Of a DNA stretch of 64,000 nucleotides, positions 8,375 to 34,900 are shown one piece after another. A model generated the notes under the pieces. It saw nothing but the letters and a program-made list of their open reading frames with translations, searched no databases and was not told the DNA's origin. The translations under genes and the position numbers were made by a program. The DNA comes from an uncultured Clostridia bacterium (GTDB taxonomy: Bacteria; Bacillota; Clostridia; Christensenellales; CAG-314): NCBI GenBank assembly GCA_947628135.1, contig CANQYT010000001.1:65285-129284 (forward strand). Direction: 5' to 3'. Numbering within the stretch: position 1 is the stretch's first letter; every line of letters begins with the position of its first letter.

Positions 8375-9004
8375 ATGGCAAATAAATTACCTAGTGCTAA
8401 GAATAAAGATAGTCTTCTTATTGTGTGTGAGGGGGCCGAAGAATTTGATTATCTCAATCGTTTAAAAACCTGCGGCGTGTGGAGTAATAATTTTTCAGTC
8501 AAGCCGATAGATGCCGGATCAATAGACAAAATTTATGCAACCTACTCATACTACTACAAGACAAACAGTTACAGACTGATTGTGATTTTTTGCGATACCG
8601 AGAAGCACCCTTATGACAAATTTGTTGCAATGAAACAAAAGATAGACGGTTTTCACGGTAAATGTGTCGCAGATCAAATTGTATTCTTCGTTAATCCATG
8701 TACGTTGCAAGTAGTGTTGCTGCATTTTGGTGCAATCAAATTGACCTCTAACAGCAAATGTGATAATGCGGAAAAGGTGGAGCGTTTGACGGGTGTGAAA
8801 AATTATGACGCAACGGAACAACAACGCAGGTCCATTGTGAACAAAATTAATATGCAAAATTACACGAAAATGAAACAACGTTTGGCGCAGTTGAAAGATA
8901 CATATACCTATGTGCCAAGTAGTAACGTACTGCACTTATTTAAGGCATTGGAGATGGGCAATCCAAAGTGGCTCAGCGAAATGAATCAAAAAATTGAGAG
9001 GTAA
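8375..9004 (+). CDS. RloB-like (Toprim-like) protein, AbiLii-like
   Basis: The LLIVCEGAEEFDYLNRLK N-terminal motif is typical of the RloB family. The start is 1 nt after the ATPase stop, with a GGGGGA RBS. Confidence 0.6.
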   Translation: MANKLPSAKNKDSLLIVCEGAEEFDYLNRLKTCGVWSNNFSVKPIDAGSIDKIYATYSYYYKTNSYRLIVIFCDTEKHPYDKFVAMKQKIDGFHGKCVADQIVFFVNPCTLQVVLLHFGAIKLTSNSKCDNAEKVERLTGVKNYDATEQQRRSIVNKINMQNYTKMKQRLAQLKDTYTYVPSSNVLHLFKALEMGNPKWLSEMNQKIER

Positions 9005-9349
9005 ATTATGGAAAATATATTATATAGTTTGTCTTACGGAAAGTGCGATGATAAAAAAGAAAAGGACGGTCATAAGAGTAATCATTAGTATGTTAATTAT
9101 AAGATTAATGAGGAACATCAAGACTAGATTAGTTACTTAAAAATGCGTATTAGATGATGCTATAGACCAAGGTACAAGAATGATTGGATTAATTAGCGGT
9201 AATAGTATTGAGAATCTAGCATAGTACGATGGATGCCAAATCGAGAAAGGATGATAAAACCATCAAAATTTTTGGGATGGATTACGACGGCAAGACAGTG
9301 AAGATGACGAATCTCAAGACTTACGTTTAGAAAAATCGTTTTTATTTCA

Positions 9350-9998
9350 GTATGTAAATAATAGTGGATATAATGTGTTGACAAACATGTTAAAAAAGAC
9401 ATATTGATAGCGACGTTTTATTCTATAATCTTTAGATTCCAGAAAACTTGAAAATCGATTGGGTCCAACATGACAACATACTGTATTGTTGCATATCTTA
9501 AAAGTGAGTATAAGGTCGTACAGTCTGACGAATAAGATTCGTACCAATCCCGAACTTGCCGCATTTATCAAAGGTATAAACGATGAGAAGAAAATCAATC
9601 GAAGTTATTTCTACCATTCCGTGGATATTCTCTACGCCAATACCGTGAATGAGGCGCAGCAAATAATTGCCATTTACCAAGATAGGGGGTATCAATTTAT
9701 TAATCATACGCCATCTTTGTATTTCAATGCGAGATTGGATAACTTTGATACAACATTTGTTGCGCATAGTGTTATCGGACAGGAGTTTGATAATGTAATT
9801 GTTACGATGGATGACAATTTTTATTATGAGAAAGGGGAATTAAGGTCCGGGGAACACCCAAATTGGAATTATTTATATCACAAAATGCTGTTTCAGGAAA
9901 TAACGCGGGTTCGAGAAAAACTTGCGATCGTCGTAATTGGAAATCCCGATGTTTTTATGCACCTGCTTGAAATTAAAAATATTCGGACGTCGGGATAG
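9350..9998 (+). pseudogene. Decayed DUF2075/UvrD_C-like helicase gene (C-terminal remnant; frameshifted pieces upstream)
   Basis: 170-aa ORF with LTNKIRTNPELAAFIKG...SVIGQEFDNVIVTMDD...REKLAIVV (C-terminal helicase motifs). It has no Walker A or N-terminal half. Short out-of-frame fragments with stops lie at 9350-9485. Confidence 0.5.
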
Positions 9999-10416
9999 GG
10001 CTGTACGTTTGACGTGATGTTGATATAATACAATGCAATGACGAAATCGAGACGTTGATTGTAACGCCAAAATGTGAAAAAAACGTTTACTGCGCCCATT
10101 TGTGGCACAAATGAGAGTAAGTGCAACAGCGCTTTCTTTTTTATCGCTTTTAAGTCGGACGCATCCTTTCAGTGGCGACAGTAGGAAATTAAATTATGTG
10201 TCGTTTCGTTCACAGCGTTCGGGGCGAGTCGTAGTATGTTTAACAGTAATTGTTTTTGTTTGAGGAGTTTTTTTGAAGCATCAACTTTGTATTATCGTTC
10301 TGTAACATTTGCGAGAAATCGGTTATTTATTGTGAGTAGAGATTCGATATACGTAAACTAAGTAAAAGGATTGATTTTAACTAAAAAGTGCTTTATAATA
10401 TCTTTGAGGTTGGATT

Positions 10417-10959
10417 ATGTTGGATATAAATGTAAAATTTTTGGAAGAATACAAAAGTTTAGACAAGTTGTGCAAGGAAATGTTCGACAGCGATGAAGGT
10501 GTTTCGCGTTATATCTTAGAAATGGAATATTCTACTGATTGTCAACGATACAACAGCAGTTGGAAACAATTCTACGATCGTTTGAAGAAATTACGGTACT
10601 ACCGAAATAAACTTGCACACGACGTTGATTTATATACGGATTTATGCACCACAAACGATGTGGAGTGGCTTCAAAAATTTCATAATGATATACTGGAACA
10701 GCAAGATCCTCTTGCGGTTGTGAGAAAACAACGCGCCCAACCAAGCATTGTAAAAATGAGGACAAATATGTCTTCAAATAATACTGCTACTTCACATAAT
10801 TTTGCCGCTTGCAACAATCAAACATTAGTGCCCAAAACGTCTAAGTGGCAACAATTCAAACAAAAAATAAAAAAATTTTTTGTATCGGAAAAAACAGGTG
10901 AATTTTTGCTTGCTCGACAGGATAAAGTAAATTTTCAACTAAACATCTTGTTTGTATAA
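10417..10959 (+). CDS. Hypothetical protein with an Rx4H (HEPN-like) motif
   Basis: 180-aa ORF with a GAGG RBS. LKKLRYYRNKLAHDVD contains R-N-K-L-A-H. Confidence 0.5.
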   Translation: MLDINVKFLEEYKSLDKLCKEMFDSDEGVSRYILEMEYSTDCQRYNSSWKQFYDRLKKLRYYRNKLAHDVDLYTDLCTTNDVEWLQKFHNDILEQQDPLAVVRKQRAQPSIVKMRTNMSSNNTATSHNFAACNNQTLVPKTSKWQQFKQKIKKFFVSEKTGEFLLARQDKVNFQLNILFV

Positions 10960-11161
10960 AGTCCTTTGAGCAGTCGACCGTAGAATAAACTTTATATTAA
11001 AATTTTTTACATTAGTACTTCCCTGTATTATGATTTCAAAGTAGTTTCGTGCAGTGGAACAATTTGCACATAGAAACAAGAGAATAGTTTATGCAAATAC
11101 ACGGCTTTATGCTATTTGATTGGTTTATCAAATGCGATGTTTTACTTCTTCCTTTTTTATT

Positions 11162-11223
11162 GAAGGCACAGGTGCAAGCGCAACGGAAAGAGTACGCACA
11201 AAGTATACTCTTTTATATCGTTT
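11162..11223 (+). repeat. Direct repeat flanking the helicase gene, left copy
   Basis: GAAGGCACAGGTGCAAGCGCAACGGAAAGAGTACGCACAAAG..CTCTTTTAT matches 14751-14812, with a 1-nt indel and a few mismatches in the tail. Confidence 0.75.
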
Positions 11224-11335
11224 CTTGATAAATTTCTTTTCATATTCAGATAGTGAAAAAGAGGGAGGAGGTATGTAATTGCATAGAAGCGAAAAAGTGA
11301 TGAGGGCTTATCTTATAAGTTTGCCCAACAAATAT

Positions 11336-11364
11336 TTGAAAAATAAATATATTTGTGCTACAAT
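11336..11364 (+). promoter_or_regulatory. Sigma-A-type promoter (extended -10) of the helicase gene
   Basis: TTGAAA, a 17-nt spacer, then TGcTACAAT. Confidence 0.6.
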
Positions 11365-11392
11365 TTAACATAGAAGTTTTCTGAGGTAAATT

Positions 11393-14300
11393 ATGAGATT
11401 ATTTTCCAGACTTTTTGGCAAAAAAGATGATATAAATTTCCCAATAGAGTATAAGGAGGCTCTTGCTTTTAATCGGGAGTTTGAATCTTTATTGTCAGAA
11501 GATAAATTTTTGGCTCGTAGCGATTATAAAAATTTTATTAAACGATATAAGGAAATTTTTACTTTCTTCGATAATATTGTAAGGGCTAGAACACTCACAT
11601 ATTTCTGTAAACAAAACAAGATACAGGAAACAGCGGTTGTAAAATTTTTGAATTATTATAAGGATATATATGATTTACCTAAAGGTTCATCACTTATCGA
11701 TAAACATAATTCTGTTTACATAGATAGTCATTTGAAATCGGAAAAATTGTACTTGGATAAAATTTTATATGAAGTAGATCCCAAAATTTTACTTGACGAT
11801 GAACAACGCAAAGTAATTTTATCTGACGAAGATTACTCGCTTGTAATTGCAGGAGCAGGTGCGGGGAAAACTACTACGGTGGCTGCAAAAGTACGGTATT
11901 TGGTTGAAAAAAAACATATAGATCCACAAAAAATTCTTGTTATATCATTTACTAATAAAGCTGTTGGGGAATTAAAAGAACGTATCAATATCGGTCTTTC
12001 TATCCCATGTCCAATCACTACATTTCACAGTGCAGGATATGCCATTTTACGCAAACAAGATGATAACAAAAAGAAAATTGTTAATGAAGGTTTTTTGTAC
12101 AATTGTATAAATAATTATTTGAAAGGGAGCATTCTTGCTCAACCCGACATTGTAGATAAATTGATAATGTTTTTTGGTTCTTATTTTGATGCACCTTATG
12201 AGGGTGATAATATCAACTTGTTTTTTAACTATATAGCCAAAGCAGACTTCAGTACATTGAAAAGCAATGTTAATGAATACAATGTTCAAGTTATTGATAG
12301 ACGCACAAACAAAGCAACTACGATAACGAATGAGATTTTACGCTCAATTCAAGAAGTTAAAATTGCCAACTTTTTATATTTGAATCAAATAGATTACAAT
12401 TACGAAGAAATATATCCTTACCATATACTAAAAGCAAAAAAACCATACACTCCCGATTTTTGTATAAGACAAGGAAACAAAGTTGCTTATATAGAACACT
12501 TCGGTATTACCGAAAATGGTAGACACAACTTCTATTCAGTTGATGAACTCAATACATATAAGCAAGAAATTCTCGATAAAATTGCATTACATAAAAAGCA
12601 CGGAAGTACATTGATATATACATACTCTGAATACAATGATGGACGAGACTTTCTTGTCCATCTACGCGAGCAACTCGAAGCAAATGGTTTTATTCTCAAA
12701 AGTCGTCCGTCTGAAGAAGTATTTACCAAATTGGTCAATACCGAAGAAAATAAGTATATTTACAAATTTGTAAAGTTAATTTGTACATTTATTAATAATT
12801 TCAAAACTAACGGTTACACGCTTGATGATTTCTACCGCTTCGAACGAACGAATGCAAATGTCAGAACAAAGTTGTTTTTTGATATATGTAAAGCGTGTTA
12901 TTTGGAATATCAAAAAAGACTGTCAGAAGAAAATTCTATTGATTTTCAAGATATGATAAACGATTCTGCACGAATTTTGCGTGAAAAGCAAATAACCAAT
13001 GAACGACTTGATTTTGAATACATAATTGTTGACGAATATCAGGACATATCACGACAACGCTTCGATTTAACAAAAGAACTGTCAAATCTCTGTAATGCCA
13101 AAATTATCGCAGTGGGAGATGATTGGCAATCCATATATGCTTTTAGCGGATCAGATGTTTCACTATTCACTCATTTTTGCTCCATAATGGGATATGGACA
13201 AGAACTAAAAATTACCAAAACATATCGTAATGCACAAGAAGTAATAGATATTGCGGGAAATTTTGTCCAAAAAAATGAGGCGCAAATCAAAAAATCCTTG
13301 GTTTCTTCCAAACATATTCAAAAACCTGTTGTTATTTACACTTATAGTGAAGAATTTGATAGAAAAGAATTCGCTGGAAAGGGTGGAAAATACTTTCAAC
13401 TTGGGAAAAAGGTGGAAGATTTAATCGGCAAAATTTTAGAGCAAAATAGCCGAGAGTCTATAAGCGCGAACTCATCTATATTGTTGATAGGGCGTTATAA
13501 TTTTGATGCGCGCAACTTATGTTTTTCCAAAGATTTTGTTTATGACGAAGATAATGGTAAGATTTTCAGTAAAAAATATCCCAAAGCGAAGTTGGAATTT
13601 CTAACTGCTCACAGTTCAAAAGGTTTAGGATATGATAATGTTGTAATTATTAATGCGAGAAATGGAGTTTATGGTTTTCCTGCAAAGATAGATGATGACC
13701 CTGTAATGAAGTACGTTATTAATGACGACACATCTATTGAGTATGCGGAAGAAAGACGTCTGTTTTACGTTGCAATGACACGTACAAAAAACAGAGTTTT
13801 TATAGTAACACCGGAAAAACACCCGTCAGAATTTATTTTGGAATTGATAAAGGACTATCCCAACATAACCGTACATGGTGATTTGAAAAAGGAAAGCGAT
13901 ACTGATGTTGATACAATTAAAAAATGTCCCGTTTGTGGCTATCCTTTGCAACTCCGTTATAAAAAGGACTACGGTCTTCGTTTGTGGATGTGTACGAACG
14001 AACCCGAAATTTGCAATTTTATATCTAATGATTTGGCTGGTGGTGAGATGTCTGTGCAAAAATGTGATAGATGTAAAGACGGTTATCTGGTAGTCAAAAA
14101 ATCTTCTACTGGTGGTACAATATTAGGATGTACAAATTACAAACAAGACGGTACGGGTTGTGACAGGTGGTTAAATCACGAAACTTATAAACGATGGATA
14201 AAAAAGGAATTCGAAGAAGATTTAACTGTCGATAAACAAGCATACAATGAAGAAGTGGTTGTCGTAATGCCTAAAATAAAGGCTGATTTACAAAGCACAC

Positions 14301-14644
14301 ATAGTATTGATCGTAAAAAGGCAGAAGTGCATAAAGTAACATATAGTGAAAGATTTATTGAAAAGGACAGATTCCAAGTAGTTGCAGATGACGAAGGCAA
14401 CATCATTACCGATATGGAATTATTAGCAGAATTGCGGAGTCTGCGAGGAAAAATAATGAAAGAAAGCAATAAACCTGCATACACCATAATCAGCAATAAG
14501 GGGCTTGTTAGTCTTGCAACATATAAACCTGAAACACGAGAGGAATTTATTGCACTTTATGGCTTGGGCGAAACAACGTACATTACTTATGGATTAAGAT
14601 TCATTGAAGCCATCAAAGAATATTTTGCCAAACGTTCATCTTAA
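11393..14644 (+). CDS. HelD (helicase IV)/UvrD-like SF1 helicase with a PD-(D/E)xK-like insertion, two topoisomerase-type zinc ribbons and a C-terminal HRDC-like domain
   Basis: - Helicase core: Walker A AGAGAGKTTT; motif II IIVDEYQDIS; GDDWQSIYAFSG; TAHSSKGLGYDNVVI; RRLFYVAMTRTK.
- Nuclease-like insertion: YTPDFCI...AYIEHFG.
- Zinc ribbons: CPVCGYPL...WMCTN..CNF and CDRCKDGYL...LGCTNY...GC.
- HRDC-like tail: NKPAYTIISNKGLVSLATYKPETREEFIALYGLGE. Confidence 0.75.
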   Translation: MRLFSRLFGKKDDINFPIEYKEALAFNREFESLLSEDKFLARSDYKNFIKRYKEIFTFFDNIVRARTLTYFCKQNKIQETAVVKFLNYYKDIYDLPKGSSLIDKHNSVYIDSHLKSEKLYLDKILYEVDPKILLDDEQRKVILSDEDYSLVIAGAGAGKTTTVAAKVRYLVEKKHIDPQKILVISFTNKAVGELKERINIGLSIPCPITTFHSAGYAILRKQDDNKKKIVNEGFLYNCINNYLKGSILAQPDIVDKLIMFFGSYFDAPYEGDNINLFFNYIAKADFSTLKSNVNEYNVQVIDRRTNKATTITNEILRSIQEVKIANFLYLNQIDYNYEEIYPYHILKAKKPYTPDFCIRQGNKVAYIEHFGITENGRHNFYSVDELNTYKQEILDKIALHKKHGSTLIYTYSEYNDGRDFLVHLREQLEANGFILKSRPSEEVFTKLVNTEENKYIYKFVKLICTFINNFKTNGYTLDDFYRFERTNANVRTKLFFDICKACYLEYQKRLSEENSIDFQDMINDSARILREKQITNERLDFEYIIVDEYQDISRQRFDLTKELSNLCNAKIIAVGDDWQSIYAFSGSDVSLFTHFCSIMGYGQELKITKTYRNAQEVIDIAGNFVQKNEAQIKKSLVSSKHIQKPVVIYTYSEEFDRKEFAGKGGKYFQLGKKVEDLIGKILEQNSRESISANSSILLIGRYNFDARNLCFSKDFVYDEDNGKIFSKKYPKAKLEFLTAHSSKGLGYDNVVIINARNGVYGFPAKIDDDPVMKYVINDDTSIEYAEERRLFYVAMTRTKNRVFIVTPEKHPSEFILELIKDYPNITVHGDLKKESDTDVDTIKKCPVCGYPLQLRYKKDYGLRLWMCTNEPEICNFISNDLAGGEMSVQKCDRCKDGYLVVKKSSTGGTILGCTNYKQDGTGCDRWLNHETYKRWIKKEFEEDLTVDKQAYNEEVVVVMPKIKADLQSTHSIDRKKAEVHKVTYSERFIEKDRFQVVADDEGNIITDMELLAELRSLRGKIMKESNKPAYTIISNKGLVSLATYKPETREEFIALYGLGETTYITYGLRFIEAIKEYFAKRSS

Positions 14645-14750
14645 AAATGTTGTTCAGTTTGTTTAAGACAAACGCGCAGTCTATTGTTATTCTCAATGTT
14701 CGGATTTGGCATTGGTTTGCGTTCGGTCTAATGGCATTTCGATATGCGTC

Positions 14751-14812
14751 GAAGGCACAGGTGCAAGCGCAACGGAAAAGAGTACGCACAAAGCGCGCTC
14801 TTTTTATCTTTT
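14751..14812 (+). repeat. Direct repeat flanking the helicase gene, right copy
   Basis: See 11162-11223. Confidence 0.75.
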
Positions 14813-14921
14813 ACAGCGGAAGTTTTGTTCTGCCGACGTATTTTTATTGGGTTGAAAATTTGCAGTAAGTTTGAGCGGGGCTTTTATTTGTACTAATCGC
14901 GTTATCCCTCAATCATCGTAC

Positions 14922-14950
14922 GCAATTTCAACTACAATTTGTAGTTGTGT
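14922..14950 (+). repeat. Hairpin-containing direct repeat, copy 1
   Basis: GCAATTTCAACTACAATTTGTAGTTGTGT with AACTAC/GTAGTT stems. It is related to 15761-15790. Confidence 0.65.
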
Positions 14951-15135
14951 AGAGGCAATAGATTTTTTATAATATAATCAAAAATCAATTTGACTGTAGC
15001 GCAGCATCCCGTTGTGAGGTTCAAACGTGTGTTGAACAAATATTTCAATTTCCGTGCAACATCGAAAAACTTACAAAACGGCTAAATACGGCTTGCGAGT
15101 CAAAATGAAAAAATCGAAAAGGCGGCAGTAGCAAT

Positions 15136-15429
15136 ATGGGTTTCTTCGGCAGTTTGATATTTTCTGCAATTTACAAAGGTTTTGAATACGGTTTCAAAAA
15201 ACTCAAAACACGCAAAGCCACAGCAATACGTTTCGGCGTTCTCGGGGTGCTATGTGCCACCAATCTTATAGTAACGATAGTGCTTTGTTGTCAAATACCC
15301 GAGTTTTGGTGGCTTTTTCTCATTACGACGGGCGCAATATTTTGCATGTTTGTGTGGCGGTTTGTTTGGGATGGAATACTCCTTTACAAAAACGATTTCG
15401 ACGAGTCGCACGATGCGCCCGATCGGTAA
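15136..15429 (+). CDS. Small hypothetical membrane protein (97 aa, about 3 TM segments)
   Basis: ORF with hydrophobic segments. The RBS is weak. Confidence 0.4.
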   Translation: MGFFGSLIFSAIYKGFEYGFKKLKTRKATAIRFGVLGVLCATNLIVTIVLCCQIPEFWWLFLITTGAIFCMFVWRFVWDGILLYKNDFDESHDAPDR

Positions 15430-15744
15430 AATACGCGGACGGCTGCTCGATACCTCCTTGCCGTCAGACAACAGCGGAGCAACATTTCTCCGCTGTTGTC
15501 GCAATAGCCAACTTTTATATTCGCCGCATTACGGCTAACCGAAAAAAAATAATTTCAAAAAAATTACGCAAATAAAGGGGAATTTTTCAAAATTTGCTGT
15601 ATTTTTTTACTAGCAAGGTTATTTGAGCCGCAAAAAAGTTTTACACAGCCCCAAAATTGCAAAATTTTAGTATGGTTCACAAATTATAAAGTATATGCGC
15701 TTTGTTACACGCATTTGCAAGACGCGCGGCAAGTATTTTTGTCG

Positions 15745-15753
15745 CCCCCCCCC
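15745..15753. repeat. Homopolymeric C9/G9 tract
   Basis: gtcgCCCCCCCCCaaag, read directly. Confidence 0.9.
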
Positions 15754-15760
15754 AAAGTAG

Positions 15761-15790
15761 GCAATTTTCAACTACAATTTGTAGTGTACA
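15761..15790 (+). repeat. Hairpin-containing direct repeat, copy 2
   Basis: GCAATTTTCAACTACAATTTGTAGTGTACA. Confidence 0.65.
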
Positions 15791-15890
15791 CCAACGGTTT
15801 GGTTTGCTATCATTGTAACGTAAAATCGGGGCGGCGTTCGGGCGTAGCTCGGTGCGCCGCTCCCTAAATTTCGACGGGAGATGACGGCTT

Positions 15891-16385
15891 GTGAAACGAA
15901 AGAAAATTTTGTTGGTTTTAACGTTGGTTATTGCAATTGTCTTGGGAAGTTTGTGTTTTGTCGCTTGCGGTGATGACGAAGATGACGACAACTACCCCGT
16001 TGAAGGCATTTGGCACGCAGTTGCCGCTTGGCAGAATGAAACCAAATTTACCTTGGGCGGTCAAACCACTAAAATAATCGACAACTACAAAGTGGATTTT
16101 TATTTTGACTTTCGCGCGGACGGCTCGGTGCTTAAAAAGAGCGTCGCGTATATAAACGACCATATTCTGCACACCGACAACGAAGAATGGAACATTTTTA
16201 ACGTAACTTGGTCGGTAAAAGGCAACGTTATCACGTTATCCAGCGGCAAAAAGTTTGTGATCGTGGATGACGAATTCGACGACGTCTTTCCGGCTCAAAA
16301 CATATTGTTGCGCTACAAAAAAGAAGCGGCAACGGATGACGAGACTTCCGCACAAAAACATATCGGCAAAATTGCCGCACGCTGA
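15891..16385 (+). CDS. Lipoprotein (lipocalin-like?), GTG start
   Basis: Signal peptide MKRKKILLVLTLVIAIVLGSLCFVAC with a lipobox Cys, followed by an acidic linker. Confidence 0.6.
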   Translation: MKRKKILLVLTLVIAIVLGSLCFVACGDDEDDDNYPVEGIWHAVAAWQNETKFTLGGQTTKIIDNYKVDFYFDFRADGSVLKKSVAYINDHILHTDNEEWNIFNVTWSVKGNVITLSSGKKFVIVDDEFDDVFPAQNILLRYKKEAATDDETSAQKHIGKIAAR

Positions 16386-16436
16386 CGGGCTTTCGCCAAA
16401 CAAAATCTTGAACAAAAAAACATAAGGAGAAATTAT

Positions 16437-17324
16437 ATGCAGAGACCCAATTTCAACAGAAACTTCCAAACGTTCATTTTAAGCAATGATTTAAGCAATC
16501 AAGATGCCGCCGATATGATAAACGAGGAGTTGGCTCGCTTGGACGCCAAAAACGAAAGAATTTATATGTCGAACGACGTCTGGACGATAGCGGGGCGCGG
16601 CAGTACTCCGCGCAATCATTTGGTGATGGTCGCCATAGCCAACATCATCGGCAAATCGTTGGAAGAACTCATCGTAAATTTGTACGACACGTCCGACTTG
16701 TACCGTCCCGATTTGAAGCGATCCAAATTGAAAGATATGCCGCCCAAAAACGCAAGTATGTGTTGTGAGAAAGTTAAAACCGACAAAAAATACGACATCG
16801 CCGCATTGTTTGAAAAAATGTCGTCGGCAGATCAAGATTTTGCTTTGGAATTATCTTACAGTATGGAGTTGGAAAACGACAGCGTATTTCTTTATTCGTT
16901 GTTGGATGTAGATATGCCGTTGGACGGGCTTATCGACATTCGAATGTACCTACATGACGGAAGCAGTGAAACAAGCAACTTGTTATCCGATTGGGCTTCC
17001 TTTGCAATTCAGTTGAAAGATTGCGACTACGATCCCTGCGCCGTGTTGGCAAATTTAGTCAAAGATCCGTTGCTTTATCCATTTACCGAAGGTTTGCATG
17101 TCAACGTGACTCCGTTTAGCGTAACGCGCTATCAGGAAGGCGATATAGCCGACGGCGAGCAATTGCAAAATGCTTATATGGTAAAAATGAAAGTTGATTT
17201 GGACAGAGATAGCGTGCTATTTTTGTACGAACATTCTCTCGAACGCGCCAAAAAGCACTTGGCGGAGTTGGAAGCGCAACAAAAACAATGTGAAAATAAA
17301 AACGACAAAAAACAATTCAAATAA
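16437..17324 (+). CDS. Hypothetical protein with a possible N-terminal HTH
   Basis: 295-aa ORF with an AAGGAGA RBS. The N-terminal LSNQDAADMINE...IANIIGKSLEELI is XRE-HTH-like. The C-terminal domain is unrecognised. Confidence 0.5.
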   Translation: MQRPNFNRNFQTFILSNDLSNQDAADMINEELARLDAKNERIYMSNDVWTIAGRGSTPRNHLVMVAIANIIGKSLEELIVNLYDTSDLYRPDLKRSKLKDMPPKNASMCCEKVKTDKKYDIAALFEKMSSADQDFALELSYSMELENDSVFLYSLLDVDMPLDGLIDIRMYLHDGSSETSNLLSDWASFAIQLKDCDYDPCAVLANLVKDPLLYPFTEGLHVNVTPFSVTRYQEGDIADGEQLQNAYMVKMKVDLDRDSVLFLYEHSLERAKKHLAELEAQQKQCENKNDKKQFK

Positions 17325-17413
17325 AAAGTAAATGCAACGGATTGCAATTAATGGCGAAAGAATTGTTGAAAATTTATTTGCAATAATCGTGTACAGTATC
17401 CCGCCATTTTGTT

Positions 17414-17450
17414 ACCGCACTTTGTTTTGCAAGGTGCGGTTTCTGTTTGT
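17414..17450 (+). terminator. Rho-independent terminator
   Basis: ACCGCAC...GTGCGGT stem followed by a T-rich tail. Confidence 0.55.
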
Positions 17451-17489
17451 TGTTTGCCGAAGTTTTGAAAAAAATTTGACAAAAATTTC

Positions 17490-17518
17490 TTGCATTTTGC
17501 ATTTGTCGGAACTATAAT
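17490..17518 (+). promoter_or_regulatory. Sigma-A-type promoter of the ferritin gene
   Basis: TTGCAT, a 17-nt spacer, then TATAAT. Confidence 0.55.
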
Positions 17519-26952: not shown

Positions 26953-29598
26953 GTGGCAAAGAAATTTATTTATTTGTTCAGCGAAGGCAACGCCAATATG
27001 CGCGAGATCCTCGGCGGCAAGGGCGCGAATCTTGCGGAAATGACCAACATCGGTCTCCCCGTTCCGCAGGGCTTCACCATCTCTACGGAGGCTTGCACGC
27101 AGTACTACGAGGACGGCAAGCACATCAACGACGGCATAAAGAAGGATATTCTCACCTACATCGCCAAGTTGGAAAAAATCACCGGCAAAAAGTTCGGCGA
27201 TCTCAAAAACCCGTTGCTTGTTTCCGTGCGTTCCGGCGCTCGCGCCTCTATGCCCGGAATGATGGACACGATTCTCAACCTCGGTCTGAACGACGAAGTG
27301 GTGGAAGTGCTCGCAAAGCAAAGCGGCAACCCCCGTTGGGCGTGGGACTGTTACAGACGTTTCATACAGATGTTCAGCGACGTCGTAATGGAGGTCGGCA
27401 AAAAGTACTTCGAAGAACTTATCGACCAAATGAAGGCAAAGCGTCACATCACGTACGACGTTGAAATGACCGCCGACGACCTCAAAGAACTTGCGGGACA
27501 ATTCAAGGCGGAGTATCAAGCCAAGATAGGCAAGCCTTTCCCCCAAGACGCCAAGGAACAGTTGTTCGCCGCGGTGGAAGCGGTGTTCCGCAGCTGGGAC
27601 AACCCCCGCGCAAACGTGTACCGTATGGACCACGACATTCCGTACAGTTGGGGCACAGCCGTCAACGTACAGATGATGGCGTTCGGCAATATGGGCGACG
27701 ATTGCGGCACGGGCGTTGCGTTTACGCGTAACCCCGCCACGGGCGAAAAGGGTCTTATGGGCGAATTTTTGATGAACGCGCAAGGCGAAGACGTCGTTGC
27801 GGGCGTTCGCACCCCGATGCCCATCAGCCAAATGGCGGAAGTGCTGCCCGACGTTTACAAGCAATTCCTCGAAGTGTGCGACACTCTCGAACATCACTAC
27901 AAAGATATGCAGGATATGGAGTTTACCATCGAACGCGGCAAACTTTATATGCTTCAAACGCGCAACGGCAAGCGTACCGCCGCCGCCGCGATAAAGATCG
28001 CTTGCGACCTCATCGACGAGGGTATGATCACCGAAAAAGAAGCGCTTATGCAGATAGACGCCAAGTCTCTGGATATGCTTCTTCACCCCACGTTTGACGC
28101 CAAAGCGCTTGCCGAAGCGGACAAGAACAACGTTGTCGGCAAAGGTATTGCGGCAAGCCCCGGAGCGGCGGCAGGAACGGTGGTGTTTACCCCCGAAGAC
28201 GCCGTTATCCTCGGCAAGCAAAAGAAAAAGGTCATTTTGGTACGCTTGGAAACCAGCCCCGAAGACATCGAAGGTATGAAGTACGCGCAAGGTATCCTCA
28301 CCGTTCGCGGCGGACAAACTTCTCACGCCGCCGTTGTAGCGCGCGGAATGGGTACTTGCTGCGTTTCCGGTTGCGGCGACATCAAGATGGACGAAGCCAA
28401 CAAACAATTCGAATTGGGCGGAAAACTGTTCCGCGAAGGCGACCCCATCAGTTTGGACGGCTCTACGGGTAAAATCTACGACGTGATGATAAAGACCGTT
28501 CCCGCAGACCCCAACGGCGGCTATTTCGGACGCATAATGAAACTTGCCGACAAATACAAGGCTTTGGAAGTACGTACCAACGCCGACACTCCCGCCGACG
28601 CACAGCGCGCGTTTGAGTTGGGCGCGCAAGGTATCGGACTATGCCGTACCGAGCATATGTTCTTCGGCGAGGGACGTATAGACAAATTCCGCGAGATGAT
28701 TTGCAGCGAGACCGTCGAAGAGCGCGAAAAGGCGCTTGCCAAGATAGAGCCGTTGCAACAGTCTGACTTCGAAGGACTTATGGAAGCGCTTCGCGGTCAG
28801 CCCGTCATCATTCGTTTCCTCGACCCGCCCCTTCACGAATTTGTTCCCACCGAGGAAAAGGACATAGAGGAACTTGCAAAGGCGCAGCACAAGACCGTTG
28901 CGCAAATCAAGCAAATTTGCAACGCTCTGCACGAGTTTAACCCGATGATGGGACATCGCGGCTGCCGTCTTGCGGTAACCTATCCCGAAATCGCCGTTAT
29001 GCAGACCCGTGCGGTCATCAAGGCGGCGTTGAACGTTCAGAAGCGTCACCCCGATTGGCACGTCGTTCCCGAGATTATGATCCCGCTTGTAGGCGAAGTA
29101 AAAGAGTTGGCATACGTCAAAAAGACGGTGGTAGCCACTGCCGACAGCGTCATCAAGGAAAGCGGTGCAAAACTTACCTATCAGGTAGGCACGATGATCG
29201 AGATCCCGCGCGCTGCGCTTACCGCCGATGAAATTGCCAAGGAAGCGGAATTCTTCTCCTTCGGTACAAACGACCTCACGCAGATGACATTCGGTTTCAG
29301 CCGCGACGACGCAAGCAAATTCCTGCCCAGTTACTACGCCAGCAAGATTTACGAATCCGACCCGTTTGCCCGTTTGGACACGGTAGGCGTAGGCAAACTT
29401 ATGAAGATGGCGGTGGAACTCGGTCGCAGCACCCGTCCCGAACTGCAATGCGGTATATGCGGCGAACACGGCGGCGACCCCGCGAGCATCGAATTTGCCC
29501 ATAGCATCAACCTCACTTACGTTTCCTGCTCGCCCTACCGCGTACCCATCGCGCGTTTGGCGGCCGCGCAAGCGAACATCAAAAACCCCCGCAAATAA
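26953..29598 (+). CDS. ppdK: Pyruvate, phosphate dikinase
   Basis: 881 aa, GTG start after GGAGG. LGGKGANLAEMTNIGLPVPQGFTI, the catalytic-His region GGQTSHAAVVARGMG, and GLCRTEHMFF. Confidence 0.92.
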   Translation: MAKKFIYLFSEGNANMREILGGKGANLAEMTNIGLPVPQGFTISTEACTQYYEDGKHINDGIKKDILTYIAKLEKITGKKFGDLKNPLLVSVRSGARASMPGMMDTILNLGLNDEVVEVLAKQSGNPRWAWDCYRRFIQMFSDVVMEVGKKYFEELIDQMKAKRHITYDVEMTADDLKELAGQFKAEYQAKIGKPFPQDAKEQLFAAVEAVFRSWDNPRANVYRMDHDIPYSWGTAVNVQMMAFGNMGDDCGTGVAFTRNPATGEKGLMGEFLMNAQGEDVVAGVRTPMPISQMAEVLPDVYKQFLEVCDTLEHHYKDMQDMEFTIERGKLYMLQTRNGKRTAAAAIKIACDLIDEGMITEKEALMQIDAKSLDMLLHPTFDAKALAEADKNNVVGKGIAASPGAAAGTVVFTPEDAVILGKQKKKVILVRLETSPEDIEGMKYAQGILTVRGGQTSHAAVVARGMGTCCVSGCGDIKMDEANKQFELGGKLFREGDPISLDGSTGKIYDVMIKTVPADPNGGYFGRIMKLADKYKALEVRTNADTPADAQRAFELGAQGIGLCRTEHMFFGEGRIDKFREMICSETVEEREKALAKIEPLQQSDFEGLMEALRGQPVIIRFLDPPLHEFVPTEEKDIEELAKAQHKTVAQIKQICNALHEFNPMMGHRGCRLAVTYPEIAVMQTRAVIKAALNVQKRHPDWHVVPEIMIPLVGEVKELAYVKKTVVATADSVIKESGAKLTYQVGTMIEIPRAALTADEIAKEAEFFSFGTNDLTQMTFGFSRDDASKFLPSYYASKIYESDPFARLDTVGVGKLMKMAVELGRSTRPELQCGICGEHGGDPASIEFAHSINLTYVSCSPYRVPIARLAAAQANIKNPRK

Positions 29599-29618
29599 GG
29601 CAAATTCGCCAAATGGGG
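29563..29618 (+). repeat. 56-bp direct repeat, left copy (last 11 codons + stop of ppdK + 20 nt)
   Basis: 54/56 identical to 32437-32492. Confidence 0.9.
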
Positions 29619-29644
29619 TAACGAAAGTAAATATCAATAATTAA

Positions 29645-29671
29645 GGACCTGCTCCTTTATGGGGCAGGTCC
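29645..29671 (+). terminator. Strong hairpin at the left edge of the cassette (no U-tract)
   Basis: GGACCTGC..GCAGGTCC. Confidence 0.35.
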
Positions 29672-29704
29672 GATATTAAATCTATATAAGAATTAAACTT
29701 AACT

Positions 29705-32413
29705 ATGGATACAAACGAACTTATCATTGTTAAAGGACAAGATAAAACATTCTCGATAAAAAAGTGGAATTATAACGAATATAAAAATGTTATTTTTATC
29801 ACATACGCCAACGGTAAAAGTTATCCGTATAGTTTACTTGATGTAGACTTTTACCAAAATCCTCAAAACATGGGGGTTTCCGATAAAAGAGTCTATTGTT
29901 TGGAACAAATAAAATCAGATGTGGAAACCGTGCAATTATTTGGACCGTTTTCCAGATTGATTTTCAAAAACGGTCATACCGAAACATATTGTTCAAAAGA
30001 CATCAAAATAGTAAATTCGGCATTAAATGATAAAAAATCCAATTGTTGTTTTCAATACTTAAAGGAGATTGCCAATGCGATAGGACTTCGCAATGAAAAC
30101 AATAGAAATATTCTTGCCGCACATTACGATAAAATTGACTTTGTTAGTGAAGAAAGCGTTTTGGCGACATTTCTAAGCGGAAAACAAACAGAAAAAGTAG
30201 TAAGTGCAACAAAAAAGATCAACATAATATATCCTTTTGGGTTTAATCTAAGTCAACAGCAAGCAGTTGAAAACGCCATGAAGTCGGAAATAAGCGTAAT
30301 AGAGGGACCTCCCGGTACGGGAAAAACGCAGACTATTCTCAACATTATCGCAAATGCAGTCATTCGTGGTGAAACAGTCGCGGTTGTATCAAGCAACAAT
30401 TCGGCAACCGATAATGTTTATGATAAGTTAAAAAAATACGGCGTGGAGTTTATTGCCGCCAAACTCGGCAATGTAGAAAATCAAGTAAAATTTACGGAAG
30501 AGCAAATAACTCAATATCCGCAAATTGCTCAATGGTCGGACAAACCCGACATTTCCTTAATTACAAAAAATTTTATCGAGCTTCACGATGAACTTCAATT
30601 GAAAAACAATTTATCAGTTTTATTATCAAAAGAAGATACATTGAAAAAAGAAAAATTGCATTTTGATGATTACTGTAAAACACTCAATTTAGAGCCACCC
30701 ATGCCATTATTTTCCGAAAAAATTTCTATAAATAAAATATTGAATTTTTCCGAAGAATATGAATATTTAGTTAGTCGAAAAAGAAAAATAGGTTTTTTCA
30801 AAAAAATGGCACTGCGTTATTCATATAAATTGAAAAACGCCGATTTTTTCGGCAAGGACATCAAAGAAATTTCGGCATACTGTCAAAGTATTTTTTACGA
30901 AAGAAAGTTGAAAGAAATTGCCACACAATGTTTGAAAGTCGAACAAGAGTTGAAAGATTTTGATTTTGACAAAAAAATGGAAATATATGTTGATTTGGCA
31001 ATGAAATCTTTAAAAAATCACTTATATAACAAATTTCAAAACTACAATCGCAGGAAATACACCGTAAAGGACTTGAAAATTTACGGTGAGCAATTTATAA
31101 GAGATTACCCCGTAGTATTAAGTACAACATACTCCATCAGTTCGAGTCTCTCATCTAATATTTGTTATGATTATCTTATTGTCGATGAAGCATCTCAGGT
31201 GGATTTGGTGACAGGTGCGCTTGCTTTGTCGTGTGCAAAAAAAGTTGTGATTGTGGGTGATTTGAAACAACTTCCCAATGTGGTAAACGACAAACAAAAA
31301 CAGCTTGCCGACGAAATATACACCAAGTACAATTTGCCCAAAGCATACCGATATTGTGATCATAGTTTACTTTTGTCAACAATAGAATTATTCCCCGACG
31401 CACCCAAAACAATGTTGCGGGAACATTATCGCTGTCAACCTGAGATTATAGAGTTTTGCAACCAAATGTTTTACAACAACGAACTTGTTGTAATGACGAA
31501 TAGAAATACAGAAAAACAACCGATGATAGTGTACAGAACCGCCGCAGGTAATATGGCAAGGGGACATTACAATCAACGGCAGATAGATGTAATAAAAAAC
31601 GAGGTTATACCGCAACAGCATTTGAACACATCGGATTCTTCCGTTGGAATAATTACACCTTATCGTGTACAAGCTGATTGTTTACAAAAAGAGTTTGATG
31701 GTACCGCAATCAAAGCGGATACCGTTGATAAATTTCAAGGTCAAGAACGTAGCGTCATAATTTTATCCACAGTTGACAATGAAATCGGAGAATTCGTTTC
31801 TAATCCCAACCGATTGAATGTGGCAGTCTCACGTGCAGTTGATAGGTTTATTGTCGTTACGGACGGAAATGATAACGACAAAGTATCTCCCGTTCACGAA
31901 CTAATTGAATACATACATTATCACAATCACGACATAGTAGATAGTAAAATAAATTCCGTGTTTGATTATTTGTACGAAATCAATGTCAAATCAAGAGAAG
32001 AAATTTTGAAGAAATATGGAAAGTCGAGCGAATTTGACAGCGAAAATTTGGTTTTTGGTATTATAAAAGATATTTTAACAGAGAACCGTTTTTCGCGCTT
32101 TAATGTAGCTATGCATGTTCCATTTAGATTGTTGCTTGGTGAACTGAAAAATTTAACTCAGAGGGAAATCGAATTTGCGACCAATGATTGGACACATGTT
32201 GATTTTTTGATATTTTCCAAATTGTCACACCTGCCCAATCTTGTGATAGAAGTGGATGGTTTTACTTTTCACAATAACGAAAAGCAAAAAGAGCGCGATA
32301 GACTAAAAGATACCATACTAACCAAATACGGCATCCCGATTTTAAGATTAAACACGGTGGGTAGCAATGAACGAGATCGAATACGCGAAAAACTTTTGGA
32401 ACTTATACAGTAA
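29705..32413 (+). CDS. SF1 (Upf1/DNA2-like, AAA_11/AAA_12) helicase with an unrecognised N-terminal domain and a C-terminal PD-(D/E)xK (DUF2726/Vsr-like) nuclease-like domain
   Basis: - Helicase core: GPPGTGKTQT; LIVDEASQVDL; VIVGDLKQLP; REHYRCQPEII; ITPYRVQ; VDKFQGQERSVII; NRLNVAVSRA.
- C-terminal nuclease-like domain: THVDFLIF...LVIEVDGFTFH...QKERDRLKD..L...GIPILRL. Confidence 0.75.
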   Translation: MDTNELIIVKGQDKTFSIKKWNYNEYKNVIFITYANGKSYPYSLLDVDFYQNPQNMGVSDKRVYCLEQIKSDVETVQLFGPFSRLIFKNGHTETYCSKDIKIVNSALNDKKSNCCFQYLKEIANAIGLRNENNRNILAAHYDKIDFVSEESVLATFLSGKQTEKVVSATKKINIIYPFGFNLSQQQAVENAMKSEISVIEGPPGTGKTQTILNIIANAVIRGETVAVVSSNNSATDNVYDKLKKYGVEFIAAKLGNVENQVKFTEEQITQYPQIAQWSDKPDISLITKNFIELHDELQLKNNLSVLLSKEDTLKKEKLHFDDYCKTLNLEPPMPLFSEKISINKILNFSEEYEYLVSRKRKIGFFKKMALRYSYKLKNADFFGKDIKEISAYCQSIFYERKLKEIATQCLKVEQELKDFDFDKKMEIYVDLAMKSLKNHLYNKFQNYNRRKYTVKDLKIYGEQFIRDYPVVLSTTYSISSSLSSNICYDYLIVDEASQVDLVTGALALSCAKKVVIVGDLKQLPNVVNDKQKQLADEIYTKYNLPKAYRYCDHSLLLSTIELFPDAPKTMLREHYRCQPEIIEFCNQMFYNNELVVMTNRNTEKQPMIVYRTAAGNMARGHYNQRQIDVIKNEVIPQQHLNTSDSSVGIITPYRVQADCLQKEFDGTAIKADTVDKFQGQERSVIILSTVDNEIGEFVSNPNRLNVAVSRAVDRFIVVTDGNDNDKVSPVHELIEYIHYHNHDIVDSKINSVFDYLYEINVKSREEILKKYGKSSEFDSENLVFGIIKDILTENRFSRFNVAMHVPFRLLLGELKNLTQREIEFATNDWTHVDFLIFSKLSHLPNLVIEVDGFTFHNNEKQKERDRLKDTILTKYGIPILRLNTVGSNERDRIREKLLELIQ

Positions 32414-32436
32414 TAGCCTCGGCTGTAAGTAGTACA

Positions 32437-32492
32437 GCCGCGCAAGCGAATATCAAAAACCCCCGCAAGTAAGGCAAATTCGCCAAATGGGG
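32437..32492 (+). repeat. 56-bp direct repeat, right copy
   Basis: It still reads AAQANIKNPRK-stop, with AAC>AAT and AAA>AAG. Confidence 0.9.
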
Positions 32493-32541
32493 CAGAAAAT
32501 ATCGGTGTCGAAATAGCAACTCTTTGATATTCTACAACAGC

Positions 32542-32580
32542 AAAAAGGGCTTATCCCGCATAGGAATAGGCTCTTTTTTT
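32542..32580 (+). terminator. Rho-independent terminator (probable original ppdK terminator)
   Basis: GGGCTTAT/ATAGGCTC stem (G-U pairs) flanked by A5 and T7. Confidence 0.55.
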
Positions 32581-32900
32581 GCGCTGCAAGTTCGTGTTTT
32601 ATTCCGCGGCGTAACTTGACGTTGTGAAATTGCCGTGCGGCAAAGAATTTCGATGTAAAAACAGGTCCTCCGAAAATTCGGAGGACTTGAATTTTGTCCG
32701 CGCCGCGCCGTTGTTTGCGCTCAATCCCAATTCGGTATGTTTACCGTTGCGCTCATCGCATAGCGGTCGAATAGATAAGAAACAAATTCGCTTATCGCTT
32801 CCGCAGCGGCTTCATTTATGGGTCTGCCGTGCAACGTATTTGATGCCGCCCAATGAAAAGCGCAAATTTTATTTTTGCGCGGGTGTGCGATAAATGACCG

Positions 32901-32971: not shown

Positions 32972-34900
32972 ATGGCAAAAGAGGTAATTTTCGGTAAACC
33001 TTTTGAAACGGAAGCGATAGTAGGCAAGGTGGAGCGAGCGGACAGTTTGGAAAATTGGCAGGTTACGCAGCGGCAAGACAAACTTGTTTTTCGATGCGCG
33101 TTGAATCCCAACGACATTGTTTACGGGCTGGGCGAGCAGGTAAAAGGTATAAACAAGCGCGGCGGCAGATACGTCAGTTACAACACGGACAACCCGCACC
33201 AAACGGACGAATCGCTGTCGCTGTACGGCTCGCACAATGTTCTGATAATCGACGGCGACAAATGTTTCGGCGCGTTTTTCGACACCCCAAGTAAAGTTTT
33301 GTTCGAAATAGACGTTGACAACAGCGGCGAGATCGTCGTCACCTGCGAACCGAACGTCAAGGTGGTGGAATTGCAGGGCGAAAGCGCCTACGCAATTGCA
33401 AGGGAATTTTTGTCGCTGATAGGCACAAGTTACATTCCGCCGCTGTGGGCGTTCGGTTTCGGGCAGAGCCGTTGGGGCTACAAAACTCAAAAGGACTTCG
33501 ACTCCGTAGTTGACGGCTACCGCAACGCAGGTATTCCGCTGGATTGGGTGTGTATGGACATCGACTATATGGATAGATACATCGACTTTACGGTCAACAC
33601 CAAACGCTTTCCCGATCTTGCTGCCTACGTCGGCTCGCTCAAAGCCGGAGGTATTCGCCTCGTTCCGATAATAGACGCAGGCGTAAAGGTAGAACCGCAC
33701 AACGACACCTACGAAACGGGCGTTGCAAACGGCTACTTTTGCACCAATCACGAGGGCAAACCGTTCAAGGCGGGGGTGTGGCCCGGAATGACGCACTTTC
33801 CCGATTTCTTTCAGCCCGCCGCCCGCGAGTGGTTCGGCGACGAGTACCGCAAACTGACAGATATGGGCATTGAGGGCTTTTGGAACGATATGAACGAACC
33901 CGCCATTTTTTACAGCGAGTATACCATTCTCAACGGGTTGACCCCTCCGCCCGCGTCGGAAGGCGTCAAAGAACCCAACGCTTACAAGGATTACCGCAAT
34001 TTTTACCACAACGTAAACGGCGAACGGGTACTGCACGACAAAGTACACAATCTTTACGGCGCGCTTATGACCCGTGCCGCGAGCGAACGGCTGAACAAAA
34101 TACTTCCCGTCAGATTTTTGCTGTTTTCCCGCGCGTCTTACGTGGGCGCTCATCGCTACGGCGGAATATGGACGGGCGACAACAGTTCCGATTGGGATCA
34201 CCTCGTGCGCAACGTCAAGATGATGCCGTCGTTGAATATGGCGGGATTTTTGTACAGCGGTGCGGATACGGGCGGTTTCGGCGGAAATTGCAGCAGGGAA
34301 CTGATGCTTCGGTGGCTTGCGTTTTCGGCGTTTACGCCGTTGATGCGCAACCACTCCGCAATACTCACTAAAAAACAGGAGTGCTACCGATACAGCGGCA
34401 AGGAAGATTTCCAAAGCGTCGTTTCCCTGCGGTACAGATTGCTGCCCTACATATATTCGGAATTTGTAAAAGCGGCGCTTTCGTCGGATATGTACATCAA
34501 ACCGTTAGGTTTCGAGTACGACGACGCCTATTCCCGCCGCACGGAGGATCAATTGTTGGTGGGCGAAAGCATTATGATCGCGCCCGTGTTGGAAAAGGAC
34601 GCAAAGGGCAGAAAAGTGTGGCTGCCCGAAGATATGACGGAGGTGCGCTACGACGGAAGCGGTTTCCTTTGCGAACAGGTATCCAAAGGAATGCGCGAAG
34701 TGAAAGTGCCGCTCGGCGAAGTGGTGTTTTACATCAGGCGGGGAAAGTGCGTGCCCGTCACTAAGAGCGCGCAGTGTACCGCCGAAACGGATCTGCGCGA
34801 CGTCGTTCTGCTCGGCGACGGAAAGGAGTACCGTCAGTATGCGGACGACGGTTTCACAAAGGACGTAACGGCGGAAAACATCGTGACCGTAAAAAAATAA
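32972..34900 (+). CDS. Glycoside hydrolase family 31 alpha-glucosidase/alpha-xylosidase
   Basis: WGYKTQKDFDSVVDGYRNAGIPLDWVCMDIDYMD, GFWNDMNEPAIF and WTGDNSSDW motifs. Confidence 0.8.
   Translation: MAKEVIFGKPFETEAIVGKVERADSLENWQVTQRQDKLVFRCALNPNDIVYGLGEQVKGINKRGGRYVSYNTDNPHQTDESLSLYGSHNVLIIDGDKCFGAFFDTPSKVLFEIDVDNSGEIVVTCEPNVKVVELQGESAYAIAREFLSLIGTSYIPPLWAFGFGQSRWGYKTQKDFDSVVDGYRNAGIPLDWVCMDIDYMDRYIDFTVNTKRFPDLAAYVGSLKAGGIRLVPIIDAGVKVEPHNDTYETGVANGYFCTNHEGKPFKAGVWPGMTHFPDFFQPAAREWFGDEYRKLTDMGIEGFWNDMNEPAIFYSEYTILNGLTPPPASEGVKEPNAYKDYRNFYHNVNGERVLHDKVHNLYGALMTRAASERLNKILPVRFLLFSRASYVGAHRYGGIWTGDNSSDWDHLVRNVKMMPSLNMAGFLYSGADTGGFGGNCSRELMLRWLAFSAFTPLMRNHSAILTKKQECYRYSGKEDFQSVVSLRYRLLPYIYSEFVKAALSSDMYIKPLGFEYDDAYSRRTEDQLLVGESIMIAPVLEKDAKGRKVWLPEDMTEVRYDGSGFLCEQVSKGMREVKVPLGEVVFYIRRGKCVPVTKSAQCTAETDLRDVVLLGDGKEYRQYADDGFTKDVTAENIVTVKK

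Follow-up and report, generated by a model that had tools for sequence, protein, structure and literature searches.

A single-gene helicase-nuclease cassette at the ppdK 3' end of an uncultured Clostridia bacterium, in a probable attachment site of large serine recombinases

The ppdK end and the segment that follows it

We analysed a stretch of 64,000 nucleotides (the window) from an uncultured Clostridia bacterium of the Christensenellales (contig CANQYT010000001.1, positions 65,285 to 129,284), in which a segment of 2.87 kb with a single gene, here called the cassette, lies at the 3' end of ppdK. ppdK (26953-29598; like the parts of the cassette and the downstream GH31 gene, on the forward strand) encodes pyruvate, phosphate dikinase (TIGR01828, 1364.7 bits; Pfam domains PPDK_N, PEP-utilizers and PEP-utilizers_C) and starts with a GTG codon that is preceded by a GGAGG ribosome-binding site. 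The cassette is bracketed by a 56-nt direct repeat. Copy 1 (29563-29618) consists of the final 11 codons of the current ppdK, its stop codon and 20 nt of 3' sequence, and is read as a surrogate end borne by the insert; copy 2 (32437-32492) is a displaced pseudo ppdK end which still reads AAQANIKNPRK-stop and is followed by native downstream DNA. The copies are identical at 54 of 56 positions, the longest exact word common to both is 23 nt, and both mismatches (AAC>AAT and AAA>AAG) are synonymous in the ppdK frame, which for two out of two changes alone gives p ~0.04. When up to three mismatches were allowed, the repeat was found twice in the window and not at all in 100 dinucleotide-preserving shuffles. 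Between the copies lie about 2.8 kb of AT-rich DNA, in which the GC content drops from ~0.54 to 0.28-0.39 and the sole long open reading frame (ORF; 29705-32413) encodes a protein of 902 aa.

Integration of the tRNA type and a transposon with inverted repeats were rejected as readings; neither a tRNA between the repeats nor a terminal inverted repeat at the cassette was found. Likewise, an integron gene cassette was rejected because there is no imperfect inverted-repeat, attC-like end and the enzymes that share the junction are serine recombinases. A recombinase gene is absent from the cassette and from those ORFs of the window that were scanned. The cassette thus holds no Resolvase+Recombinase protein, as an autonomous large-serine-recombinase element would, and no remnants of recombinase or transfer genes were found inside it.

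Two hairpins at this locus fold well. The left-end hairpin at 29645-29671 (GGACCTGCTCC / GGGGCAGGTCC) is predicted to form an 11-bp stem (-24.6 kcal/mol, z -6.66) without a U tract and is considered a surrogate ppdK terminator stem, whereas the native ppdK terminator, composed of an A-tract, a hairpin and a T7 tail (32538-32586; -21.1 kcal/mol, z -3.8), is displaced to the right of copy 2. A terminator is found at the equivalent place 3' of the ppdK end in three related loci (L097, L180 and L178; related loci are given L numbers throughout). By eye, the left hairpin of the window resembles the native terminator stem of L097, a genome with an empty site, and the stretch from ppdK stop to hairpin in L180 resembles the native downstream region of ppdK in L097 together with its terminator stem. 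The left hairpin (AAGGAYCTGCTCC...GGAGCAGGTCC) is common to the helicase cassettes of the window, L178 and L180 and to a cassette with unrelated cargo (L088). ppdK is kept intact, the insert providing its last 11 codons, and from these sequence resemblances the left end of the cassette is read as a captured ppdK end plus terminator stem.

Codon differences between the two ppdK ends were counted at eight loci. The ends differ at 20 codons, and 18 of these differences are synonymous and two non-synonymous. The synonymous share expected for random changes is ~20%, which gives P ~3e-11 for 18 out of 20. This excess indicates that the differences arose while both copies were working ppdK ends in different lineages; it supports the import of a working end and excludes duplication in situ followed by drift. 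As the data come from metagenome assemblies, one might suspect an artefact of assembly, or a tandem duplication that arose in situ at the ppdK end without any mobile element. However, seven independent contigs (ENA and Logan assemblies) show the same colinear order at 99.9-100% identity, and no exact match between the copies exceeds 23 nt, which makes an assembly duplication very unlikely. The foreign GC content between the repeats and the synonymous pattern across loci also contradict this explanation, which we consider extremely improbable.

The original prediction had described the 56-nt repeats with their synonymous mismatches, the AT-rich insert of ~2.8 kb with one gene of 902 aa, and the lack of an integrase, inverted repeat or tRNA. 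These descriptions agree with our re-alignment and codon check, with the GC profile and ORF list, and with our scans, respectively. Its two hairpins could both be confirmed as stable folds (29645-29671 without a U tract and 32538-32586 with the T7 tail), its proposal that the insert brought along its own gene end and hairpin as surrogates is supported, and the assembly duplication that it had named as a counter-explanation is contradicted by the seven contigs.

Large serine recombinases at the ppdK end

The core of the attachment site comprises the AAQA(N)I codons of ppdK (GCCGCGCAAGCGAACATCAA; 29563-29582), where the left edges of all repeats as well as all element junctions fall. In the window and in L088, L095, L008, L046, L012, L032 and L180, the second copy has its left edge within GCN GCN (GCN) CAR GC, and among ppdK C-termini inside one 90% protein cluster divergence begins exactly after ..ARLAAAQA.

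In two sister-strain contigs (L089 and L092), a helicase gene that is 99.7% identical to that of the window lies directly downstream of a conjugative-type element. The element carries genes for a VirB4/TraG-like ATPase, TnpV and, at its end, a 625-aa Resolvase+Recombinase protein, which is a large serine recombinase; a Resolvase+Recombinase protein is likewise present in the neighbouring element of L178. At the junction of L089/L092 (...ggagtacTGCA|CAAGCGAAC), the sequence is homologous to the window from 29566 onwards, which is 3 nt into copy 1 of the repeat. The recombinase ORF of L089 reads through the repeat, its last 24 residues corresponding to window positions 29570-29641 in another frame (L089 9866-9940), and it is solely via this tail, encoded by the repeat and the first cassette bases, that the recombinase matches the window. 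Copy 1 is in L089 the chromosome-side arm for the newly arrived conjugative element. Judged from these sequences, the serine-recombinase element of the sister strain is integrated between ppdK and the cassette, with ppdK plus copy 1 as its target. The recombinase tail varies with the integration partner and gives a protein of 625 aa in L089 and of 638 aa in L178. The closest solved domain to the L089 recombinase is PDB 3g13, a 'putative conjugative transposon recombinase', and no Ccr protein was found among its solved-structure matches.

Such tandem accretion of an element beside a cassette was observed in four contigs (L089, L092, L178 and L179). In their conjugative-element parts, L089 and L178 share 99.15% identity, compared to 95.5% in the adjoining cassettes, indicating that the element arrived independently beside resident cassettes, as in accretion, and not by recent co-transfer.

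The family of the L089 recombinase is linked to ppdK, as seen at 80 metagenome loci with relatives (53-78% identical) and in the best 120 homologue clusters. At 30 of the 80 loci, ppdK follows directly after the 3' end of the recombinase gene in convergent orientation, and at least 14 further loci have a pseudo ppdK end after the recombinase in the same orientation, with the junction ..GCA|CAGGC... Among the best 120 clusters, 76 have a C-terminus of the convergent type, and 53 read antisense through the AAAQAA codons of ppdK. The same recombinase-ppdK arrangement is present in two Oscillospiraceae genomes (L052 and L064). A complete element of 4.45 kb with both ends visible was found in L175, where the order is ppdK, surrogate end, genes for a ParA fragment, an HTH protein and MazF, recombinase, and displaced ppdK end. 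The repeat edge of the cassette lies within 3-6 nt of the recombinase-element junctions at ppdK, so that cassette and serine-recombinase elements coincide in their junctions.

The geometry of attL and attR sites that the original prediction had recognized therefore holds, the repeat edge matching the junctions of recombinase elements at ppdK. Its statement that the insert itself carries nothing to catalyse integration is correct, and its 'no recombinase' reading is weakened by the recombinase element that adjoins a nearly identical cassette, a result which it had itself named as having this effect. The undescribed insertion route that it had listed as a possibility is not needed, given that a large serine recombinase specific for the ppdK 3' end adjoins a 99.7%-identical cassette in the sister strain; mobilisation in trans and a reduced island, which it had also listed, both fit.

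At the ppdK end, elements of this recombinase family (L098-L177, L052 and L064) occur in either orientation. Those of the convergent class carry a near-constant surrogate ppdK tail (..AAQAAIKQK-stop, then AIVPSVEN) in hosts with 25-35% difference in ppdK, and palindromes rich in GC, for instance GCGGCCGC, are found in the target codons. Some recombinases are followed by pseudo ends that are in turn the surrogate ends of other element types (L171 11722, L173 2245 and L174 11911) and read AIKSR-stop then EFSFL, AIKQK-stop then AIVPS, or NIRNPRATK-stop, so that stacking of element on element is common at ppdK.

Related cassettes, spread and possible mobilisation

Recombinase-less cassettes with other cargo, bracketed by ppdK-end repeats, were found in at least six other species. 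Between the copies of a 94-nt repeat, L088 carries genes for an HTH/M78 protein, a DUF4417 protein and Ntox50, and a 27-nt repeat in L095 encloses one ORF of 102 aa. In L008 the copies are 2.3 kb apart and flank one 583-aa surface-repeat protein; in L046 (Lawsonibacter) they are 3.7 kb apart and flank a nitroreductase and a flavodiiron-like protein. There is no gene between the copies of L012 (193 nt apart, 2229-2451) and L032 (119 nt apart, 11171-11319), and both of these short duplications may have been left behind by cassettes that were lost. L180, with a 29-nt repeat, carries a helicase cassette between its copies.

The right end of these cassettes is conserved as well. The motif CTGTAAGTAGTACA (32423-32436), the element-side arm of the right junction, recurs in other cassettes. 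Directly 5' of the pseudo ppdK end, the right arm TTGTAAGTAGTACAGC is found exactly in L088 and L180 and with two mismatches in L095, and the loci that share it (the window, L088, L095 and L180) differ in cargo or host. The length of the conserved arm is ~16-20 nt. By eye, the right arm of L088 (CCCCTTGTAAGTAGTAC) is partly like the 3' end of the recombinase gene in L098 (CCCCTTTCAACGTGGAGTAC).

A comparison of L095 with L097, whose flanks are 99% identical, revealed an occupied/empty polymorphism for a sister cassette. L097 has a single ppdK end followed directly by the terminator and is a sister species of the window (ppdK 85% nt and 95% aa identity). The empty configuration that the original prediction had called for is thus present in a sister species, and not for the helicase cassette in its own species. 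A metagenome scan for the exact pattern of ppdK end plus native downstream DNA gave no match, and the DNA of the nearest species representatives (ppdK 92% aa identity) is too diverged to show an empty site.

The helicase cassette is distributed horizontally and occupies ppdK in three host backgrounds, the window, L178/L179 and L180; the original prediction had suggested a search for the same cassette at ppdK or at other loci. Downstream of the cassette lie the gene for a GH31 glycosidase in the window, other genes with a GC content of ~0.50 in L178/L179, and different genes again in L180. Between the window and L180, ppdK is 75.8% identical at the nucleotide level and the helicase gene 84.5%, and sliding identity rises from ~67-78% to 82-87% at the hairpin. 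Species nearer to the window than L180 have no helicase at the ppdK site. Homologous co-transfer with the 3' part of ppdK was rejected because the sliding identity plot shows none, and the pattern in these sequences fits horizontal movement of the cassette without that part of ppdK.

Taken together, we consider it probable that the segment of 2.87 kb represents a non-autonomous integrative cassette lying in the attachment site of a large-serine-recombinase family, formed by the AAQA codons at the 3' end of ppdK. By analogy, the best reading of the cassette is one of the type of cis-mobilisable elements (CIMEs) or of pseudo-staphylococcal cassette chromosomes (pseudo-SCC), which would depend on recombinases from neighbouring elements. 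Site-specific recombination would have placed the cassette at the ppdK end. Its left end, the captured ppdK end with the terminator-like hairpin, would keep ppdK whole, and at its right end the short element-side arm ..TGTAAGTAGTACA would be joined to the displaced native ppdK end. Placement, excision and re-insertion may be carried out in trans by a recombinase of the family. Alternatively, a conjugative element that lands beside the cassette, as in the sister strains, might mobilise it in cis. The regenerated ppdK with its surrogate end probably serves as attachment site for newcomers, which are seen to stack at this junction.

Several observations weigh against this interpretation. No excised circle of the cassette was seen, and no empty site for the helicase cassette was found in its own species; the 90% ppdK cluster was gone through completely, and all contigs of the species carry the cassette. 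The exact right-end motif is absent from every recombinase locus fetched and from viral contigs; the arm of the neighbouring element itself, AAAGTGGAGTACTGCA, matches the right arm of the cassette just partly and with a different spacing. The repeats of the cassettes are 56-94 nt long, compared to ~15-20 nt at recombinase-bearing elements. Finally, the two copies of one genome show greater likeness than do the first copies of different genomes: GGCAAATTCGCC is present in both copies of the window and GGCAAAAAAGCC in both copies of L178 (3893-3965 and 6771-6846), although the cassettes are related. This homogenisation within genomes is not predicted by a pure 2-bp crossover of a serine recombinase; gene conversion, exchange between close relatives or a homology-driven step would have to be assumed.

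Some of these observations would also be expected if the cassette were a dead remnant, namely an internally deleted ppdK-integrating element which is no longer site-specifically mobile and persists by vertical descent or is exchanged among relatives through homologous recombination in the flanking core genes. The cassette has no recombinase, none of the recombinase loci fetched has a matching end motif, all contigs of the species carry the cassette, the gene-less duplications of L012 and L032 look like decay products, and such a decay path has been described for CIMEs (PMC5704250). On the other hand, a comparison of the window with L180 shows the cassette to be better conserved than ppdK; identity rises abruptly at the left cassette edge, and the 3' part of ppdK was not transferred along with it. 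The right arm (~16-20 nt) and left hairpin are also kept across unrelated cargo, which is hard to obtain by independent deletions. We therefore regard a dead remnant as rather unlikely.

The homogenised copies would agree with insertion through homology, in which RecA-type recombination (Campbell or ends-in, with gap repair) between the captured ppdK end of a circular or linear cassette copy and the ppdK end of the host would need no site-specific enzyme in the recipient. It would also agree with a left edge fixed at the start of homology and with a repeat length that tracks the extent of homology (27, 29, 56, ~74 and 94 nt). However, conservation of the right-end motif to the left of the homology is then unexplained, the copies of L046 differ at 7 of 10 codons and are thus not homogenised, 27-29 nt is very short for RecA-dependent recombination, and the junctions of the recombinase family coincide with the cassette edge. 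Homology-driven insertion appears unlikely to us, more so than a dead remnant.

A broader form of recombinase-dependent mobilisation can be put forward only tentatively. In these uncultured gut Clostridia, the ppdK end might be an integron-like platform for mini-cassettes with conserved termini (a captured ppdK terminator stem at the left and the arm of ~16-20 nt at the right) and exchangeable cargo such as a defence helicase, a toxin module, a surface protein or redox enzymes, which would be stacked and shuffled by trans-acting large serine recombinases of passing conjugative elements, while the captured gene end would also permit homology-driven re-insertion independent of a recombinase; we think this rather doubtful.

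The cargo, comparable systems and other features of the window

The cargo gene (29705-32413) encodes a helicase of superfamily 1B (Upf1/DNA2-like) with a nuclease-like domain of the DUF2726 / REase_MTES_1575 type at its C-terminus. Pfam matches are AAA_11 (6e-27), AAA_12 (5e-29) and DUF2726 (1e-14), REase_MTES_1575 scoring below threshold, and matches in PDB include DNA2, IGHMBP2 and Upf1. Walker A (GPPGTGKT), DEASQ and helicase motifs III, V and VI are all present in the translation, indicating an intact helicase. In PADLOC the protein matches MkoC (1e-53), MkoA (4e-53) and Hhe (2e-22), in each case through the helicase core only, and the same holds for its NCBIfam matches to Hhe (116.8 bits, cut-off 2000) and ProA (136.7 bits, cut-off 1500). 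It shares with the anti-phage helicases Hhe and Mokosh (MkoA/MkoC) a Upf1-like SF1 core and a C-terminal domain of the restriction-endonuclease fold, but it stays below the family threshold, lacks their domain set (no DUF4011 or PLD domain was matched in the Pfam scan) and is half their size or less. Full-length relatives of ~900 aa are widespread in gut Clostridia and carry generic annotation only. From its domains, the helicase-nuclease probably provides a single-gene defence function, either anti-phage or anti-plasmid.

The nuclease-like domain of the cargo could suggest a new insertion mechanism, by the helicase-nuclease itself or by another enzyme so far undescribed, and a direct repeat of ~54 nt likewise flanks another helicase gene of the window. 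Cassettes with other cargo (a surface protein, redox enzymes and a toxin module) use the same junction, which indicates that the cargo is not the integrase, and a sufficient known enzyme family is already at the site. A new mechanism is accordingly very improbable.

The first description of CIMEs and of their tandem accretion with integrative and conjugative elements (ICEs) concerned ICESt1/ICESt3 of Streptococcus thermophilus, which occupy the fda 3' end (reviewed in PMC5704250). Like a CIME, the ppdK cassette lacks recombinase and transfer genes and lies between repeats of the attL/attR type where a housekeeping gene ends. Next to it, a functional element is integrated in tandem (here in L089, L092, L178 and L179), and the gene end is restored by the element. 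The helicase-DUF2726 gene is the only gene in the cassette, in line with the gene content of a CIME. The ppdK system differs in that a large serine recombinase takes the place of a tyrosine integrase, in its far longer repeats (56-94 nt), which include the captured terminator stem, and in the different histories of element and cassette (99.15% versus 95.5%); mobilisation in cis is putative here.

In staphylococci, SCC elements and ccr-less (pseudo-)SCC cassettes occupy the 3' end of rlmH/orfX (PMC8407400). There too, large serine recombinases insert cargo-bearing cassettes into a conserved gene at its last codons, with direct repeats at the junctions, arrays of several cassettes and some cassettes that lack a recombinase yet bear repeats. 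The target ppdK, the recombinase lineage and the branch of the host phylum differ, the partner is here a conjugative element, and SCC repeats are ~18 nt, shorter than those of the ppdK cassettes. Membership in SCC, as defined by the rlmH/orfX site and Ccr, was rejected since the target is ppdK and the serine recombinase belongs to another lineage, so that the likeness is confined to mechanism.

PvCTn-like conjugative transposons of Bacteroidota integrate in the same codons of the ppdK 3' end (PMC11005914). As at the cassette, imperfect direct repeats flank the element and a stop codon is regenerated within few residues. Window positions 29563-29582 match 17 of the 20 motif positions of the PvCTn attB (manual count); the mismatches are the Asn codon, which is Ala in Bacteroidota, and one other base, and ppdK retains AAQANIKNPRK-stop. 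The PvCTn-like elements belong to another phylum and are full conjugative transposons, in contrast to single-gene, recombinase-less cassettes; they are characterised by an integrase related to BVU3359 (of Phocaeicola vulgatus), the BVU3432-3433 regulators and type IV secretion genes. The likeness is by target site, the integrase type being unstated in PMC11005914. In a test for a link to the PvCTn integrases, the rluA-rmuC neighbours were absent from L120 and L145.

Clostridial elements of the Tn4451/Tn5397 type, with TnpX/TndX as their large serine recombinases, resemble the neighbouring element in that a TnpV homologue lies beside the recombinase and the recombinase gene is at the very end of the element; its catalytic domain matches TnpX weakly and at low identity. 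We know of no ppdK-specific target among the features of these transposons.

The ppdK cassette is a further example, in uncultured Christensenellales-like Clostridia, of a known class of non-autonomous, att-flanked elements, and its novelty is modest. The enzyme family behind its integration has likely been identified. The ppdK 3' end emerges as a major docking site, across orders, for serine-recombinase elements in gut Clostridia, in parallel to Bacteroidota, and single genes of the defence type can persist there as recombinase-less cassettes which restore the docking site for later arrivals. In annotation, this accounts for ppdK genes of metagenome-assembled genomes that have duplicated ends or variable C-termini, and for microbiome engineering it offers a conserved, non-disruptive landing site together with the enzyme family that uses it.

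To the right of the native terminator and outside the element, the chromosomal flank of the window carries the gene for the GH31 glycosidase (32972-34900; Pfam), which is syntenic in L090, L094, L095 and L097. In a sister strain, an insertion of four genes (encoding proteins of 329 aa and 84 aa and two DUF2589 proteins) was found between the ppdK terminator and this gene (L090 3842-6371 and L091 4511-7040, between window positions 32837 and 32874). It uses an insertion point separate from the ppdK end.

A second AT-rich island (5468-17500, GC 0.31-0.38) is present in the window directly 3' of tRNA-Val(cac) (5468-5544). Its genes encode a T5orf172 protein, an AAA_21 ATPase with a 219-aa partner, a DUF6548 protein and a 1083-aa helicase with UvrD, Zn-ribbon and HRDC domains, and no integrase was found among the ORFs scanned. 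The gene of the 1083-aa UvrD-like helicase (11393-14644) is bracketed by the direct repeat of ~54 nt (11162-11214 and 14751-14804), which comprises 28 nt at 100% and 28 nt at 86% identity with a spacing of 3589 and holds a terminator-like hairpin. This unit resembles a second single-helicase 'cassette' in the same window.

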